Virus record (IMG/VR): IMGVR_UViG_3300025314_000006
Source of the DNA: a virus
Taxonomy: Duplodnaviria > Caudoviricetes
Strand: one strand, 5' to 3'
Length of the DNA stretch: 64,000 nucleotides
Under the pieces are notes generated by a model. It made no database searches and had not been told where the DNA came from. It saw only the letters and a program-made list of their open reading frames with translations. The first letter of the stretch is position 1. The number at the start of each line of letters is the position of its first letter. A program made the position numbers and the translations under genes. Shown here piece after piece: positions 5,012-15,010 of this stretch.

Positions 5012-5083
5012 TAGCGAAAACTGGAATCGAACCAATGTAGACACAGCTTATGAGACTGGTGGGAAACCAACATCCTTTTCGCA
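5012..5083 (-). tRNA. tRNA-Met(CAT), initiator-like
   Basis: Loop CT CAT AA; U1:U72 mismatch typical of initiators, but lacks the three G-C anticodon-stem pairs. Confidence 0.75.
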
Positions 5084-5403: not shown

Positions 5404-5435
5404 AACAAAAAACCCGAACCTTTTTTAAGTCCGGG
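5404..5435 (-). terminator. Intrinsic terminator of attenuator 1, upstream of tRNA operon 1
   Basis: CCCGGACTT-AAAA-AAGGTTCGGG followed by TTTTTTGTT. Confidence 0.8.
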
Positions 5436-5475
5436 TGTGTTATGTTGTTTCCCTTTTAAGTTTTTATATCTTACT

Positions 5476-5604
5476 TCATGAAACAAAATGTTTTAACACA
5501 CCCATATTATCGCGGCTATAATCGCCAGGGGTAATACACGCATACCCGACTGTCGGCATGACTGCCCAAATCGTTGTAATTGTTGTATGTGTTAAATTTT
5601 TCAT
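5476..5604 (-). CDS. Attenuator leader peptide 1 (42 aa)
   Basis: MKNLTHTTITTIWAVMPTVGYACITPGDYSRDNMGVLKHFVS*; its GGGTGTGTTA (5494-5503) is complementary to TAACACACCC (5433-5442), which overlaps the terminator 5' arm. Confidence 0.75.
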   Translation of the reverse strand: MKNLTHTTITTIWAVMPTVGYACITPGDYSRDNMGVLKHFVS

Positions 5605-5684
5605 TGAAGATGTTTTCTTTTTAATTAAACTTAAATAGTATAAAAAATTATTTTCTCAAATATTTCTTTCGACCAATTATAACG

Positions 5685-5717
5685 CAAAGATATAATTAAA
5701 GTTTAATAAAAAGCAAA
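5685..5717 (-). promoter_or_regulatory. Bacteroidota primary-sigma promoter for leader 1 and tRNA operon 1
   Basis: TTTG (5714-5717), 21-nt spacer, TATCTTTG (5685-5692); a near-duplicate lies at 14052-14083. Confidence 0.75.
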
Positions 5718-8752: not shown

Positions 8753-10126
8753 ATGAATAATAAAGAACTAAGAAAATCGATAAGAAGGATTTTAAAGGAA
8801 AATCTTGAAAATTCTGATTGGGTGAATGCCAGTGATGCTCAAAAAGCTGCAATGCAAGATATAGACTCAGAAGATGAATTTGAACACTTAGGAACTAATA
8901 GGTTTGAAAAAGATTTTGATGTTGAAGATTTTCTATATGATTTAGAAGCTCAAAAAAATATGTCTGAGCCATCTGTAAAAAGATTAGAAAAACAAATTGG
9001 GCAATTAAAAAGATTTGGAAAGGGTTCTTTGAATGAATTATCGCCAGAAATAAGACAATCCGCACTTAAAAAAGCTGTTGATTATATTGAACAACCTGGA
9101 GATACCTATCATAAAGACCCGCTCCAATATATTAAGAAAAAAAACCAAGCAAATTCATTTATTTCTCATGTTAATCCTGAGTTAAAAAAAGAAGCTATGG
9201 AAATAGCAAAAATGATAGATGTAAATTGTGAAAGTCGTATAGAAAAAGAAGCGGTAGGAAGTACACTTGAACCAAATGTTGTATTATATTTTGGTCAAAA
9301 CATTGCAGATTTAAGTAATCAAATACTTAAAATTGCCATTAAAAAAGATAATCATACATGGGAAACCAAAAAATTTATTCCTGAAAATATTCAAAGAAGA
9401 TTGGCTAATTTTATAAAAAAGATTCAAACAAAAGAAATATCTAGTCCAGTTAAACAATTGAATGAGAGATTTCTTGGTGGATGGCATTATTTCGCAACTC
9501 CAGAAGGTAAAGAAGAATATATTAAAGACCTCGAGTCTAAAAAGATTAATGCAAAAGGAGAAGAATTAGAGCAAATTGAAAAAGAACTTAAAAAGTTAAA
9601 ATCAATAAAACCAAAATCCTTAAAAGAAGAAACATCAAAACTTGACAAGCCAAAAGATTCTGCAGGAAATTCAATATCATCCGGAGTGAGAGTTGAAGAT
9701 TTAGAGTCGGGTAGTGCTGGACGAGTTGAGAGATTTGGTATTGACGACAAAGGACAATTAACAGTTCATGTTGCTTGGATAACAAAATATGGACAGATAG
9801 CTCCAAAGTCCATTGTTTATCCCAAAAATATAATTGTTAAAGATTCTGCAAAAAAGATAACAGACGAAGGAATTAAAGATACTTTAAAAAATATTTATAA
9901 AGAATTGAATCCTATTGAAAAATGGAAACAAATGAAAGAAAATCGTAAAAAGCTCGAAAAAGAAGTTAGTGATTTACGAAGAGAAGTTTCTGAAAAGGAA
10001 AAAGAATTAGAAAAAATAGTGAATAGTAATCATATTAAAGCTGATGTAAGTAATGATGTTGACGAAGGAATTGGAGCTGGATTATCACTTCCAATAAAAA
10101 AAGGAGCCGGAAGCAGATTTAAATAA
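8753..10126 (+). CDS. Hypothetical protein, putative protease-processed virion polyprotein
   Basis: N-terminal LRKSIRRILKE; internal SLNE, QLNE and SLKEE linkers; TATTTAT at 8728-8734. Confidence 0.6.
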   Translation: MNNKELRKSIRRILKENLENSDWVNASDAQKAAMQDIDSEDEFEHLGTNRFEKDFDVEDFLYDLEAQKNMSEPSVKRLEKQIGQLKRFGKGSLNELSPEIRQSALKKAVDYIEQPGDTYHKDPLQYIKKKNQANSFISHVNPELKKEAMEIAKMIDVNCESRIEKEAVGSTLEPNVVLYFGQNIADLSNQILKIAIKKDNHTWETKKFIPENIQRRLANFIKKIQTKEISSPVKQLNERFLGGWHYFATPEGKEEYIKDLESKKINAKGEELEQIEKELKKLKSIKPKSLKEETSKLDKPKDSAGNSISSGVRVEDLESGSAGRVERFGIDDKGQLTVHVAWITKYGQIAPKSIVYPKNIIVKDSAKKITDEGIKDTLKNIYKELNPIEKWKQMKENRKKLEKEVSDLRREVSEKEKELEKIVNSNHIKADVSNDVDEGIGAGLSLPIKKGAGSRFK

Positions 10127-10133
10127 AACTATT

Positions 10134-11147
10134 TTGGAAAATAAGTTAAGAAAATATATTCAAAAAATCCTTCAAGAATCTTTAAATACAGAAGACATTC
10201 CTGAAGACATCCCCATTAAAAAAGATTTAAAATTCACTGAGACCTCAAGAGGTTCGCATCATGGCCAGCAGGATTTAACAGCTTATGCCACAATAGAGGG
10301 AATAGTAGTTGGCTATGTTGAATATTCTATATTTCAGAACGAAATCCACATAGAAATGATTGAAGTTGTTGAAGAACAAAAAAGACAAGGAATAGCAACA
10401 AAATTATTTCATTTTATAAGACTTAAAAATTCTGGTATGAAAATTATTCCAGGATATTCAACCGAAGAAGGAAGTAAATTTTATAATGCTTATAAAAGCA
10501 AAAAACTAAAAGAAGATATAAATGTTCCTATAAATGTTGGAGATACCGTTCTTGGTGGCCGTTTTAAAAATAAAAAAATTATTATTAAAGATATAGGAAA
10601 GTCAGATAAGGGCGACATTACAATTAATGACAAGCCTCTTTTAAAAGTTAGGATTCCAAAGAAAATAAATGAAGAAAAATTGACATGTTTATATATTCAT
10701 GGTTTAGGAGCTGAAATATCTGATGATATTAAAAATTCTCTTTCCAAATACAATCTCATATATCCCAAAATAAACTACGACAAAACAACAAAACCATATT
10801 ATCAATGTTTAGAAATATTAAATAAAGATAAGGTGGATTTTATAATAGGTCATTCTATAGGTGGAGTTATGGGTTATTATTTAGCTAAAGAAACAAATAT
10901 TCCAGCTTTATTATTATGTCCGGCATTTGGAGATGAATATAAAGTTCTCACAAGTAAGTTAGTTAAAGATAATAACCCAAAAATAGTTGTTATCATAGGA
11001 AAAAAAGATGATGAAGTTGATAATAAAAAAGTTAAATCCACTTTAGAAAATCAACCCAATTGTGTTATTAAAGAATTAAATATCGGACATGATATTACAG
11101 AAAAAAATCTGATTTTATTTGCTGATGGTTTTGTTGAAAATTTATAA
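10134..11147 (+). CDS. Multidomain protein: GNAT, small module, alpha/beta-hydrolase (YqiA-like)
   Basis: KRQGIATKL GNAT motif; YIHGLG and GHSIGG nucleophile elbow; domains separated by KLKED and KINEE. Confidence 0.75.
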   Translation: MENKLRKYIQKILQESLNTEDIPEDIPIKKDLKFTETSRGSHHGQQDLTAYATIEGIVVGYVEYSIFQNEIHIEMIEVVEEQKRQGIATKLFHFIRLKNSGMKIIPGYSTEEGSKFYNAYKSKKLKEDINVPINVGDTVLGGRFKNKKIIIKDIGKSDKGDITINDKPLLKVRIPKKINEEKLTCLYIHGLGAEISDDIKNSLSKYNLIYPKINYDKTTKPYYQCLEILNKDKVDFIIGHSIGGVMGYYLAKETNIPALLLCPAFGDEYKVLTSKLVKDNNPKIVVIIGKKDDEVDNKKVKSTLENQPNCVIKELNIGHDITEKNLILFADGFVENL

Positions 11148-11174
11148 TTGAAATTATTATTTTTTAATATAAAG

Positions 11175-11247
11175 TGCTTCCAGTTGGACTTGAACCAACG
11201 ACCCGAAAATTAAGAATTTCCTACTCTACCATCTGAGCTATGAAAGC
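11175..11247 (-). tRNA. tRNA-Lys(CTT)
   Basis: GCTTTCA/TGGAAGC acceptor; loop TT CTT AA. Confidence 0.85.
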
Positions 11248-11335
11248 AATAATTTATAATGTATTATAGATATATGTTGAGTAAAATCCACAGAATGTTC
11301 TATTTTATGGATTGTGCTCAACAAATATGTAATTG

Positions 11336-11409
11336 TGTGTCCGACAAGATTTGAACTTGTGACCTCCGCATTAAAAGTGCGGTATTCTAACCAGCTGAAT
11401 TACGAACAC
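11336..11409 (-). tRNA. tRNA-Lys(TTT)
   Basis: GTGTTCG/CGGACAC acceptor; CCGCA-CT TTT AA-TGCGG. Confidence 0.9.
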
Positions 11410-11413
11410 ATAG

Positions 11414-11500
11414 TGTACCCAGAAAGATTCGAACTTTCAACGGCCTTTCGGCTCCCCACAGGGTAAAAACCTGTTGCTCTACCAATTGAGCCATGGGTAC
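11414..11500 (-). tRNA. tRNA-Lys(TTT) with a long variable arm
   Basis: GTACCCA/TGGGTAC acceptor; ACAGG-TT TTT AC-CCTGT; 19-nt variable region with a GCC-GAAA-GGC hairpin. Confidence 0.8.
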
Positions 11501-11504
11501 AAAT

Positions 11505-11536
11505 AAAAAAGCCTGAATCTACACAGAGACTCAGGC
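11505..11536 (-). terminator. Intrinsic terminator of attenuator 3, 4 nt before the first tRNA-Lys
   Basis: 10-bp stem GCCTGAGTCT/AGATTCAGGC followed by TTTTTT. Confidence 0.85.
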
Positions 11537-11556
11537 TTTTTGGACTTATAAAAAAG

Positions 11557-11622
11557 TCAATGAGCTATCGTCCCCGGAGACCAGGGTTTCTTAGATTTTT
11601 TTATTTTGATTATTGTTAACAT
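11557..11622 (-). CDS. Attenuator leader peptide 3 (21 aa, Lys-rich)
   Basis: MLTIIKIKKSKKPWSPGTIAH*; five Lys codons in seven (four AAA, one AAG). Confidence 0.75.
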   Translation of the reverse strand: MLTIIKIKKSKKPWSPGTIAH

Positions 11623-11733
11623 TTTGTTTATTTTTTTAAATTAAAAAGAGCCCACACTCAACTGGTGGCTAATTTTTATGAACGAGTATTACCCAAGTTC
11701 TGTCATCCACTATGACAAATTTCTATTGTTATT

Positions 11734-12086
11734 TTAACCTTGAATATCTTGACATTCCGTGATGTTATAGGTCTTTATAAAATCCTTACCATCAGTTATT
11801 ATTAAATCCAAGTTACTTGAATAGTACCCGTTATTAGAACCGTGTCCAGCTATTTTTACAGAATGTCCTTGTATTGGAATTAATTCAATTCCGTAATCAG
11901 GAATTCTTTTGAAGAAATCATCATTTGTTAAATCAAATTCTAATCCTTCAAATCAGCGATTGTTAAATCATCTAATGTTAATGAATGTGATTCACAACAA
12001 TCTGATTCATGATTTGAATATAACTTTACTTCATTTTCAAATTCAATTGCATCTGAGTCAACTTTTACTACTTTTAATTTGTTCAT
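11734..12086 (-). pseudogene. Conserved-looking phage hypothetical gene with a 1-nt frameshift near 11948
   Basis: First frame ends ...ADLKD* at 11940; the shifted frame continues EGLEFDLTNDDFFKRIPDYGIELIP...GHGSNNGYYSSNLDL...* to 11734. Confidence 0.6.
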
Positions 12087-12102
12087 TTTATTTATGTTTT
12101 TG

Positions 12103-13825: not shown

Positions 13826-13860
13826 AAAACAAAAAACCCGAACTCTTTTGTAAGTCCGGG
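13826..13860 (-). terminator. Intrinsic terminator of attenuator 2
   Basis: CCCGGACT-TACAAAAG-AGTTCGGG followed by TTTTTTGTTTT; near-identical to 5404-5435. Confidence 0.8.
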
Positions 13861-13889
13861 TGTGTTTATGTTGTTTTAATTTTAATCTT

Positions 13890-13979
13890 TTACGATTCAA
13901 AAGGACAATACACACCCGCTCGGCTTTTATTACTAAAACTCGATTTGTTAAAATGCTTATGTGTATTATTTGTTGTCAT
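13890..13979 (-). CDS. Attenuator leader peptide 2 (29 aa)
   Basis: MTTNNTHKHFNKSSFSNKSRAGVYCPFES*; CGGGTGTGT (13910-13918) is complementary to ACACACCCG (13857-13865). Confidence 0.75.
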   Translation of the reverse strand: MTTNNTHKHFNKSSFSNKSRAGVYCPFES

Positions 13980-14051
13980 TTTGTATTCTTAATATTCTTT
14001 AAATAGTATAAAAAATTATTTTTCTAAAAATTCTTATTATCAATTATAACG

Positions 14052-14083
14052 CAAAGATATAATTAAAGTTTCAAAAAAGCAAA
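14052..14083 (-). promoter_or_regulatory. Bacteroidota primary-sigma promoter for leader 2 and tRNA operon 2
   Basis: TTTG, 20-nt spacer, TATCTTTG. Confidence 0.75.
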
Positions 14084-14944: not shown

Positions 14945-15010
14945 GATGATATATTTTAATTATTTATTGTTTGGGATACAAATGTAATAATAAATTTAAT
15001 ACAAACAAAT

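Follow-up and report, generated by a model that had tools for sequence, protein, structure and literature searches.

The window, by which we mean the whole 64 kb stretch of DNA that was analysed, comes from a huge uncultured phage and contains three tRNA-Lys genes that lie behind a short ORF and an intrinsic terminator (Table 1). A Lys-rich leader with a hairpin and a terminator in front of these genes had been proposed in a preliminary description made from the sequence alone, and all of the features were recovered on the minus strand at the positions given there. The ORF includes four AAA and one AAG codons for Lys. The predicted hairpin 1:2, which had been correctly placed right after the Lys run, begins on the base that follows the last Lys codon, and the ORF reads through it. 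The terminator had been described as 10 bp long and 4 nt from the first tRNA. The 10 bp core was found, but the stem ends 10 nt from the tRNA and only the end of the T6 run is 4 nt away, the whole of the gap between stem and tRNA being the U-tract.

Table 1. Features of the putative lysine attenuator and the tRNA genes behind it, in the order of the minus strand (numbered by position in the 64 kb window; energies are for predicted folds)
Feature	Position	Strand	Remarks
Weak hairpin and T5 behind the upstream DUF7448 gene	11645..11672	minus	−4.6 kcal/mol; not called by the terminator scan
A-rich 5′ leader, no Shine-Dalgarno, 3′ end ACAAAATG	11623..11644	minus	from context comparison
Leader ORF MLTIIKIKKSKKPWSPGTIAH	11622-11557	minus	ATG to TGA, 21 codons plus TGA
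Lys codons	AAA 11607-11605, AAA 11601-11599, AAA 11598-11596, AAG 11592-11590, AAA 11589-11587	minus	
Putative regulatory Lys run KIKKSKK (AAA, AAA, AAA, AAG, AAA)	11587..11607	minus	
Hairpin 1:2 (CCCTGG, loop TCT, CCGGGG)	11572..11586	minus	−8.0 kcal/mol
Segment 2 CCGGGGAC	11570..11577	minus	common to hairpin 1:2 and antiterminator
Small hairpin B (GACTT/AAGTC)	11543..11558	minus	−3.1 kcal/mol; overlaps the stop codon
Intrinsic terminator	11506..11541	minus	10 bp core plus A5/U5 extension, 15 bp in all; −19.6 kcal/mol
Terminator core GCCTGAGTCT/AGATTCAGGC	11536-11511	minus	10 bp; −14.4 kcal/mol
Segment 3 GTCTCTG	11524..11530	minus	upper terminator 5′ arm and loop; pairs with segment 2
U-tract TTTTTTATTT (T6-A-T3)	11501..11510	minus	final base adjoins the tRNA
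tRNA-Lys(UUU), 88 nt, long variable arm	11413..11500	minus	first gene under the putative control
tRNA-Lys(UUU), ordinary size	11335..11409	minus	
tRNA-Lys(CUU)	11174..11247	minus	behind a structured 87 nt spacer

Lys runs of this kind are rare in the window. Among its 465 short ORFs that begin with ATG and are 12–45 codons long, the KIKKSKK leader is the only one with at least five Lys in seven residues, and just one to three such runs occur in the approximately 9 kb of non-coding sequence. The run stands before the only tRNA-Lys genes in the window. When 13 leaders were compared, Lys was the top amino acid for the KIKKSKK leader, which showed the highest Lys enrichment of the set (z = 3.1 against the pooled leader composition). 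Lys is also the most frequent amino acid of this phage (11.1 %), with AAA as the dominant codon and a phage-wide AAA:AAG count of 1505:243. The use of both codons in the leader had been read as a match to the UUU and CUU anticodons of the genes behind it; both are indeed used, but their 4:1 ratio is that of the genome and the match was dropped as evidence.

The A-rich start context lacking a Shine-Dalgarno sequence is common to this leader, the other leaders of the phage and those of a related phage (GenBank accession number LR756502.1), and ACAAAATG is also present at attenuator 2 (leader 2) of the window. The N-terminus of the leader (MLTIIK, of the form M-x-T-I-I-K) is similar to the MRTINK and MKTTIK of validated leaders. 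Beyond the N-terminus and ACAAAATG the sequence could not be aligned to attenuators 1 and 2, and the terminator has a GCC...GGC stem, compared with the CCC...GGG stem of the other leaders.

The pairings 1:2, 2:3 and 3:4 of a classical attenuator are all predicted, with segment 2 shared. The best alternative pairing joins CGGGGAC (11576–11570) to GUCUCUG (11530–11524), together with GCU:AGC, and is close to, though not identical with, the pairing of GGGGAC...GCTCA with TGAGTCTC that had been suggested earlier. The minimum-energy fold obtained when the terminator 3′ arm is left out (−16.9 kcal/mol) contains this duplex, which by itself contributes −8.1, with hairpin B as an inner stem. In dinucleotide shuffles, however, the terminator arm paired upstream equally extensively in 74 % and equally stably in 18.5 % of cases, and the antiterminator pairing, which is present but statistically not distinctive, was dropped as evidence after this control. 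The last Lys codons (11592–11587) abut segment 1 (11586–11581) and the stop codon (11559–11557) is 10 nt after segment 2. Given the known footprint of a ribosome, one stalled in the Lys run would mask segment 1 and one at the stop codon would mask segment 2. Strong terminators are scarce on the minus strand, with just four in 64 kb, the terminator of the Lys element among them. Three of the four follow a short ORF and stand 11–83 nt from the tRNA block that comes next. A search of the leader with Rfam covariance models yielded no leader family, T-box or lysine (L-box) riboswitch; its sole match, L10_leader (27.7 bits, where the gathering score is 44; E=0.55), was at chance level and was rejected.

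No Bacteroidetes-type promoter (TTTG..TAnnTTTG) was found ahead of the leader; sites of this type are present at attenuators 1 and 2 as well as at 14979–15009. This agrees with the earlier suggestion that the element has no promoter of its own and is nested within the operon-2 transcript, and the absence of a promoter fits nesting; the analogous Gln and Ile/Gly/Ala leaders of LR756502.1 described below are also nested, directly behind upstream tRNAs. The weak hairpin behind the DUF7448 gene probably acts as a leaky stop through which operon-2 transcription reaches the leader. There is no space for a promoter between the terminator and the first tRNA-Lys gene, so that tRNA-Lys would be made only by read-through. 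The region between the tRNA-His gene and the leader holds mobile-looking inserts, and the terminator could have arrived with them. It is symmetric, with A5 before the stem and the T-run after it (T5 on the plus strand), and could also stop a convergent plus-strand transcript.

The same design, in which a short ORF encodes the amino acids of the tRNAs that follow and a terminator comes next, exists and is conserved in related phages. It is shared by four related huge phages (LR756502.1, LR756501.1 and two IMG/VR contigs) and several metagenome contigs. Five primary units, each consisting of a promoter, a leader and a terminator, precede tRNA blocks in LR756502.1, and their leaders spell the amino acids of the block, for example SSRSRSS before Arg/Ser/Arg and IGYTGYEGAYSE before Glu/Tyr/Ile/Gly/Ala. 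Three more units are found in LR756501.1, including an L-rich leader before five tRNA-Leu genes, and a 476 kb IMG/VR contig repeats the LR756502.1 set with the leaders conserved. When the assignments of the 13 leaders to tRNA sets were shuffled, the observed match was reached in none of 200 000 trials, and again in none of 200 000 with the Lys element of the window left out. The window element, a Lys leader before three tRNA-Lys genes, fits this class match.

The nested leaders of LR756502.1 include exact analogues of the nested, single-amino-acid type seen in the window. A Gln leader (MTTSFQQQQQQQINRTD) and a terminator 8 nt before four tRNA-Gln genes lie inside a Pro/Asp/Gln operon, and a nested Ile/Gly/Ala leader is found 12 nt before its tRNAs. 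The Gln leader is conserved in two further phages, both from IMG/VR, as MTTTSQYQQQQQINRTD and MRTTTQYQQQQQINPTD; the three genomes have different terminator stems but share the hairpin, the tail TTTTTTATTG and the spacing. In the nested attenuators, as in the window, the hairpin begins immediately behind the regulatory run and the ORF continues through it. The Gln and Ile/Gly attenuators have the tail TTTTTTATT(T/G) 8–12 nt from the tRNA, compared with TTTTTTATTT and 10 nt in the window. The likeness to the Gln attenuator is the most detailed, as both lie behind upstream tRNAs, have a run of one amino acid that uses both synonymous codons with a hairpin directly after it, and carry the TTTTTTATT tail, with the end of the stem 8–10 nt before the first tRNA. 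They differ in that the Gln attenuator has seven consecutive Gln codons, compared with five Lys in seven, has its stop codon inside segment 2 and is present in three genomes, the Lys element being known from a single one. The nested Gln attenuator was first found in the present analysis and is unpublished as far as the literature shows.

The primary leaders also hold the codons of the nested sets, namely Lys in leader 2, Gln in leader E and Ile/Gly/Ala in leader C. Leader 2, the multiplex leader above the Lys element, contains three Lys codons. The control logic of the leaders is hierarchical, with a primary multiplex tier and a nested tier.

We consider it likely that the element is a ribosome-mediated leader-peptide transcription attenuator that is nested in tRNA operon 2 and gates the three tRNA-Lys genes. 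The core of this reading, namely a Lys leader, a decision at the terminator and a position within the operon-2 transcript, is well supported by the statistics of the window and by the close analogues; from it we infer translation of the ORF, the direction of the regulation and the structure that wins under each condition. Transcription would start at the operon-2 promoter near 14080 and cross the Phe, Ser, Ser, Asn and His tRNAs and two inserted protein genes before reaching the leader, where a ribosome would initiate at the AUG at 11622. If AAA and AAG were decoded slowly, the ribosome would stall in the Lys run (11607–11587) and cover segment 1 (CCCUGG), leaving segment 2 (CGGGGAC) free to pair with the terminator 5′ arm (GUCUCUG), so that no terminator would form and transcription would read through into the tRNA-Lys genes. 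If Lys were decoded rapidly, the ribosome would reach the UGA (11559–11557) and cover segment 2, and the terminator would form; if there were no translation, hairpin 1:2 would form and the terminator would again be free. In both of these cases transcripts would stop within the U-tract, immediately ahead of the tRNA. The net effect would be negative feedback of the tRNA-Lys supply on its own synthesis, at a level below the multiplex leader 2.

It is unlikely that the ORF arose by chance and that the terminator is an ordinary one, ending either the upstream cassette (HNH, tRNA-His, DUF7448) or a convergent plus-strand operon, with the Lys run a by-product of an A-rich spacer and tRNA-Lys made by constitutive leak-through. 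Such an origin would be consistent with an antiterminator no better than those of shuffled sequences, with the symmetry of the terminator and its T5 on the plus strand, with upstream genes that look like mobile inserts, one of them frameshifted, and with the lack of an orthologue. Phage records, IMG/VR, metagenome contigs and sequencing runs were searched and no orthologue of the Lys element was found. Near and distant blastn searches of 50 697 phage records returned tRNA-level matches only, and in IMG/VR neither the long-arm tRNA nor the terminator was matched by its exact pattern, and a search guided by the protein of the downstream GNAT fusion gene was also negative. When LR756502.1 and LR756501.1 were searched at the DNA level with the region, only AT-rich noise was returned. 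Homologues of the GNAT fusion gene and of the upstream DUF7448 gene are found in other contexts that do not include a tRNA-Lys block, and the neighbouring genes of the element are not syntenic elsewhere. The leader was 100 % identical, with no microdiversity, in all sequencing runs and JGI contigs holding the locus, and no RNA sequencing runs holding it were found. The phage is present in groundwater and sediment samples, and a closer relative of it occurs at low depth in run X18. Conservation with changes between genomes is seen for the analogous elements only.

Against a chance origin, strong terminators almost never end genes in this phage (four on this strand in 64 kb, three of them before tRNA blocks) and the Lys run is unique among the 465 short ORFs. 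A strong constitutive stop 10 nt before the tRNAs, with no room for a promoter, would also leave the three genes nearly silent, and three phages have kept the same geometry for Gln.

A more elaborate version, in which the leaders make up a two-tier network giving feedback on tRNA supply for each amino acid and the Lys tier doubles as an anticodon-nuclease alarm that induces a cleavage-escaping long-arm tRNA-Lys, appears rather improbable. Here the multiplex leaders at the starts of operons would measure all the codons served, while the nested leaders would tune distal sub-blocks.

There is a small chance that the ORF is translated and senses Lys decoding and that its effect is exerted by, or also by, a route other than intrinsic termination. 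A hairpin at the 5′ end of the tRNA could, for example, affect precursor processing by RNase P, RNA stability or factor-dependent termination. This possibility is raised by three other phages (LR756502.1, the 476 kb IMG/VR contig and L247) in which a Lys-rich mini-ORF and a hairpin stand just before a tRNA-Lys block. The presence of such a mini-ORF at the same position also speaks for the main reading, a Lys leader in front of the tRNA-Lys genes. The peptides (MKTKRKYKR, MKTKLKYKR and MKSKLKYKR, or MK(T/S)K(R/L)KYKR) are encoded with synonymous changes at Lys and Arg codons, and the hairpin, 12–15 nt before the tRNA-Lys, shows a compensatory change. None of the three hairpins has a U-tract and, because this is missing, these elements cannot work in the same way as intrinsic terminators and would have to act by some other route such as those above. 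Hairpin 1:2 of the window is in the same place, right after the Lys run. However, the window has a full canonical terminator with a T6 run, and its tail and spacing match those of the nested Gln and Ile/Gly terminators, which argues against this alternative. In LR756501.1 and several metagenome contigs the tRNA-Lys genes have no dedicated leader, a point against the main reading.

tRNA-Lys is a target of PrrC and of AriB, and the preliminary description had suggested that the element may be an antidote switch triggered by defence systems such as PrrC or PARIS. It seems quite improbable that this is a dedicated counter-defence device, which would detect cleavage of host tRNA-Lys by PrrC or the PARIS effector AriB and answer with phage tRNA-Lys that includes a nuclease-resistant long-arm variant: the first gene behind the leader is an unusual long-arm tRNA-Lys(UUU) and any sensor of Lys decoding would respond to an attack on tRNA-Lys, but in these phages the same control is found on tRNAs for the majority of amino acids and defence is not singled out, and Lys is simply the commonest residue with AAA as its dominant codon. 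Defence is not needed as an explanation because the control covers the tRNAs of nearly all amino acids, and a general feedback between supply and demand suffices; the earlier suggestion has no support here.

Attenuation by a leader peptide is textbook knowledge for the genes of amino-acid synthesis and for a small number of synthetase genes. No description of its use on tRNA genes was found in the literature, which is not proof of absence. Here the mechanism appears to be applied to the tRNA genes themselves, with the ribosome gauging the speed of decoding and the phage correcting the supply of tRNA. If so, this would account for the way in which phages carrying dozens of tRNA genes dose their tRNAs, and the leaders would be a direct statement, readable from sequence, of which codons the phage treats as limiting in its host. 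The Lys element would be an attenuator inside an already attenuated operon, with control resolvable to a single amino acid. The units are short (approximately 120 nt) and modular and may be reusable as sensors of tRNA availability.

Like the trpL, hisL, pheL, leuL and thrL attenuators of Escherichia coli and Salmonella, the element combines a short ORF, a run of regulatory codons, 1:2, 2:3 and 3:4 pairings and an intrinsic terminator, and the signal would be the position of the ribosome. The predicted energies are of the same order as those of the classical attenuators (−14 to −20 kcal/mol for the terminator, −8 for hairpin 1:2 and −17 for the antiterminator fold). In contrast to the trpL type, the window element would control tRNAs rather than enzymes, so that the product would feed back on the decoding step that is sensed, and it is found in a phage, nested in a tRNA operon, with neither its own promoter nor a Shine-Dalgarno sequence. 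In E. coli, pheM-pheST is a leader-peptide attenuator of an aminoacyl-tRNA synthetase gene that is chromosomal and has its own promoter. It resembles the window element in regulating a component of translation for the amino acid that is sensed, but its target is a synthetase gene and not tRNA genes.

T-box riboswitches likewise respond to the state of a particular tRNA by choosing terminator or antiterminator; unlike the window element they bind the uncharged tRNA directly and need no translation, and no T-box or specifier structure was detected in the leader in the Rfam search. Like the ilvGMEDA and thr leaders, those of the primary tier in this phage group sense several amino acids at once, and the Lys element is a single-amino-acid tier below such a primary leader. 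Unlike ilvGMEDA and thr, the primary leaders of the phages sense up to approximately ten amino acids each, matched to the tRNA set, and the combination of a primary and a nested leader in one operon is a feature of the phages and not of ilv or thr.

The preliminary description of a Lys-rich leader, a hairpin, a terminator and tRNA-Lys genes (the Lys element) was borne out at the coordinates tabulated here, while minor details of distance and pairing did not hold. Five of seven leader codons, at 11607–11587 (−), specify Lys (4 AAA and 1 AAG). Hairpin 1:2 begins on the base next to them, and the leader ORF continues through this hairpin to its stop. An A5/U5 extension lengthens the terminator to 15 bp (−19.6 kcal/mol). 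No promoter proper to the Lys element was found upstream of the leader.

Coordinates and properties of the Lys element and of leaders in related phages
Sequence	Feature	Position	Strand	Details
Window	Weak hairpin upstream of leader	11672–11645	−	−4.6 kcal/mol
Window	Leader ORF MLTIIKIKKSKKPWSPGTIAH	ATG 11622 to stop 11559–11557	−	ORF reading
Window	Hairpin 1:2, CCCTGG/CCGGGG	11586–11572	−	6 bp, −8.0 kcal/mol; fold
Window	Small hairpin	11558–11543	−	−3.1 kcal/mol; fold
Window	Terminator core	11536–11511	−	10 bp, −14.4 kcal/mol; fold
Window	Terminator tail TTTTTTATTT	11510–11501	−	last base adjoins tRNA-Lys(UUU)
Window	First tRNA-Lys(UUU)	11500–11413	−	
Window	Second tRNA-Lys(UUU)	11409–11335	−	
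Window	tRNA-Lys(CUU)	11247–11174	−	
LR756502.1	Leader MKTTIKNTSSRSRSSKSGEVRLYS			tRNAs Arg, Ser, Arg
LR756502.1	Leader MNRFTNIETIGYTGYEGAYSELL...			tRNAs Glu, Tyr, Ile, Gly, Ala
LR756502.1	Leader MKTMNLNMNLNTLTVVNNTLCIR...			tRNAs Asn, Leu, Val, Ile, Thr, Arg
LR756502.1	Leader MKNLILNIAIQVQRQVVVDQDQPD...			tRNAs Pro, Asp, Gln
LR756502.1	Leader MRTINKHKHFSKLNKWFSNH...			tRNAs Phe, His, Trp, Lys
LR756501.1	L-rich leader			matching block of five tRNA-Leu
LR756501.1	Met/Gln/Ile/Glu leader			matching tRNA block
LR756501.1	Ser/Lys/His/Phe/Trp leader			matching tRNA block
LR756502.1	Mini-ORF MK(T/S)K(R/L)KYKR plus hairpin	373590–373660		
476-kb IMG/VR contig (G001)	Mini-ORF MK(T/S)K(R/L)KYKR plus hairpin	219723–219791		
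Metagenome contig L247	Mini-ORF MK(T/S)K(R/L)KYKR			~90 nt before first tRNA-Lys

The 87-nt spacer at 11248–11334 (−), between tRNA-Lys(UUU) and tRNA-Lys(CUU), forms a long hairpin (−18.1 kcal/mol) followed by ATATATCTATAATAC, which resembles a portion of the promoter shared by the other leader-terminator units of the window, attenuators 1 and 2. This spacer may signal processing or act as an internal promoter of tRNA-Lys(CUU). The Lys terminator is symmetric, and its plus-strand reading (11501–11541) is a hairpin then T5. It could serve as a stop for the convergent plus-strand genes at 8753–11147, the transcripts of which could first cross the tRNA-Lys genes in antisense.

Among the 465 ATG ORFs of 12–45 codons in the window, the Lys leader alone has five Lys in seven codons. 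Lys runs of such density occur one to three times in the approximately 9 kb of non-coding sequence, so the chance of one lying within 100 nt before the sole tRNA-Lys block is about 1%. Only four strong terminators (defined by T6 and a hairpin at least as stable as −10 kcal/mol) were found on the minus strand of the 64-kb window. Three of these precede tRNA blocks, at distances of 11, 33 and 83 nt, and each of the three follows a short ORF. A strong stop before three tRNA genes, with no space for a promoter, is sensible only as a conditional stop. In the best fold lacking the terminator 3′ arm (−16.9 kcal/mol), CGGGGAC (segment 2) pairs with GUCUCUG of the terminator arm, and this is incompatible with both hairpin 1:2 and the terminator. 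Shuffled upstream sequences produced the same alternative pairing in 74% of trials (equally stable in 18.5%), and for this reason the pairing, though compatible with the model, was not counted as evidence. No diverged copy of the Lys element was found in phage records, IMG/VR, metagenome contigs, protein neighbours or sequencing runs; matches to its DNA, where any, were 100% identical.

The window has a G+C content of 28–31% along its full length, and its encoded proteins are of phage type (homing endonucleases, a ribonucleotide reductase and a SNF2 helicase). The ribonucleotide reductase shares 70% identity with its counterpart in LR756502.1, a 642-kb uncultured phage, and 59% with the one in LR756501.1 (735 kb). 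A 503-kb contig encodes one protein of the window. Window DNA is present in many runs from groundwater, sediment and soil. The minus strand carries at least 16 tRNA genes in its 1.5–14 kb part.

The entire sequences of LR756502.1 and LR756501.1 were examined and their tRNAs located. In LR756502.1, each of five tRNA blocks is headed by a promoter-like site (TTTG followed by TAnnTTTG), after which come a short ATG leader ORF, encoding the amino acids of its downstream tRNAs, and a strong terminator. The 476-kb IMG/VR contig has the same set with conserved leaders. The Phe/His/Trp/Lys leader family (MRTNNTHKHFSKS...) was found again in seven additional IMG/VR and metagenome contigs and is clearly orthologous to window attenuator 2 (MTTNNTHKHFNKSS...); orthologues of leader 2 are present in nine or more other phage contigs, which come from a range of habitats. 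When tRNA sets were permuted among 13 leaders, the observed match was attained in none of 200,000 permutations, with the Lys element either included or excluded. This comparison at system level is the decisive evidence. The promoter regions of attenuators 1, at 5404–5717 (−), and 2, at 13826–14083 (−), are almost identical and include a Bacteroidetes-type TTTG..TATCTTTG site. Both attenuators also have the GGGTGTGT/ACACACCC pairing and CCCGGACTT terminator; their leader codons differ.

Nested leaders were also found. Within the Pro/Asp/Gln operon of LR756502.1, directly 3′ of the upstream tRNAs, MTTSFQQQQQQQINRTD uses both CAA and CAG, with a hairpin beginning immediately after the Gln run and a terminator (tail TTTTTTATTG) whose stem ends 8 nt from four tRNA-Gln genes. 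This unit is kept in two more phages, as MTTTSQYQQQQQINRTD and MRTTTQYQQQQQINPTD, and in all three the hairpin, tail and distance are alike but the terminator stem sequence is not. A second nested unit in LR756502.1, MKNLHNISVGVIAIGAGSV..., is 12 nt before tRNAs Ile, Gly and Gly. The Lys element has all the hallmarks of this subtype, namely the lack of a separate promoter, a one-amino-acid codon run, a hairpin straight after it, tail TTTTTTATTT and a stem end 10 nt from the tRNA. The codons of nested sets are also found in primary leaders (Lys in leader 2, and Gln and Ile/Gly/Ala in leaders E and C of LR756502.1), and the arrangement is therefore hierarchical.

A Lys-codon ORF before the tRNA-Lys block is conserved in LR756502.1, the 476-kb contig and L247, and this unit looks like a Lys sensor. 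The peptides are MKTKRKYKR, MKTKLKYKR and MKSKLKYKR; their codon exchanges include one AAA/AAG and one AGA/CGC (Arg), and the stop codon position is unchanged. Directly 3′ lies a stable hairpin, ending 12–15 nt before the tRNA-Lys block, in which a T-A pair changes to C-G (compensatory) among the three phages. No U-tract follows the hairpin in any of the three, and these are therefore not canonical intrinsic terminators. LR756501.1 and several other contigs contained no dedicated Lys element.

The first tRNA-Lys(UUU) of the window is 88 nt, with a long variable arm as in class II tRNAs. Long-arm tRNA-Lys were also seen in LR756502.1 (373661–373930; 87, 89 and 82 nt), the 476-kb contig (L145/L147; G001 219792–220138) and JGI contig L017 (3306–3399 and 4625–4712), where one is directly 3′ of a class II aminoacyl-tRNA synthetase gene (PF00152). 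This trait is conserved.

We consider it probable that the Lys element is a ribosome-mediated attenuator, a reading well supported by analogy and statistics but not proven for an element known in a single copy. On the basis of its coordinates and the classical model, we infer that transcription would start at the operon-2 promoter near 14080, cross the Phe, Ser, Ser, Asn and His tRNAs, an HNH gene, the frameshifted DUF7448 gene and the weak hairpin, and reach the Lys leader, which would be translated. A ribosome stalled on the last Lys codons would mask segment 1 (CCCUGG), leaving segment 2 to pair with the terminator arm and allowing polymerase to read through to the tRNA-Lys genes. A ribosome at the stop codon would mask segment 2, and the terminator would form; without translation, hairpin 1:2 would form and termination would again follow. 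The tRNA-Lys products would speed leader decoding, closing a negative feedback loop. Ribosome-mediated attenuation is a known mechanism; the Lys element differs in its target, its phage location and its nested single-amino-acid form. tRNA genes are a new class of target, and a full-text literature search found no published description of their attenuation by leader peptides.

The proposed triggering of the switch by PrrC or PARIS found no support; the same control spans most amino acids, and a link to defence is speculation. High Lys demand suffices for a dedicated Lys tier, because Lys is the commonest residue of the phage (11.1%; 1505 AAA versus 243 AAG codons). A Lys sensor would react to tRNA-Lys loss whatever its cause.

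The tRNAs of the window phage deviate from standard models. Two tRNA-Ser (about 13648–13563 and about 13535–13450 (−); UGA and GCU anticodons, read by eye) were missed by both ARAGORN and Rfam, and a CAU-anticodon tRNA (5012–5083 (−), 25 bits) and a tRNA-like gene (1570–1648 (−), 35 bits) were detected by Rfam only. No CUA-anticodon tRNA was seen in the window; LR756501.1 has two adjoining ones (690585–690738 (+); amber suppressors labelled Pyl by ARAGORN), a pair consistent with recoding of stop codons there. Upstream of the leader, the DUF7448 gene at 11734–12090 (−) is split by a 1-nt frameshift near 11950, with a TAG at 11942–11940. Intact homologues are 117 aa, and run X18 contains a related phage whose frame is restored by one additional G following 11949. 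Between tRNA-Thr and tRNA-Cys, the 262 nt at 2486–2747 (−) match the whole model of bacterial RNase P RNA class A, at only 39 bits against a gathering score of 100 (E = 3e-9), and could represent a reduced RNase P RNA that the phage encodes within tRNA operon 1.
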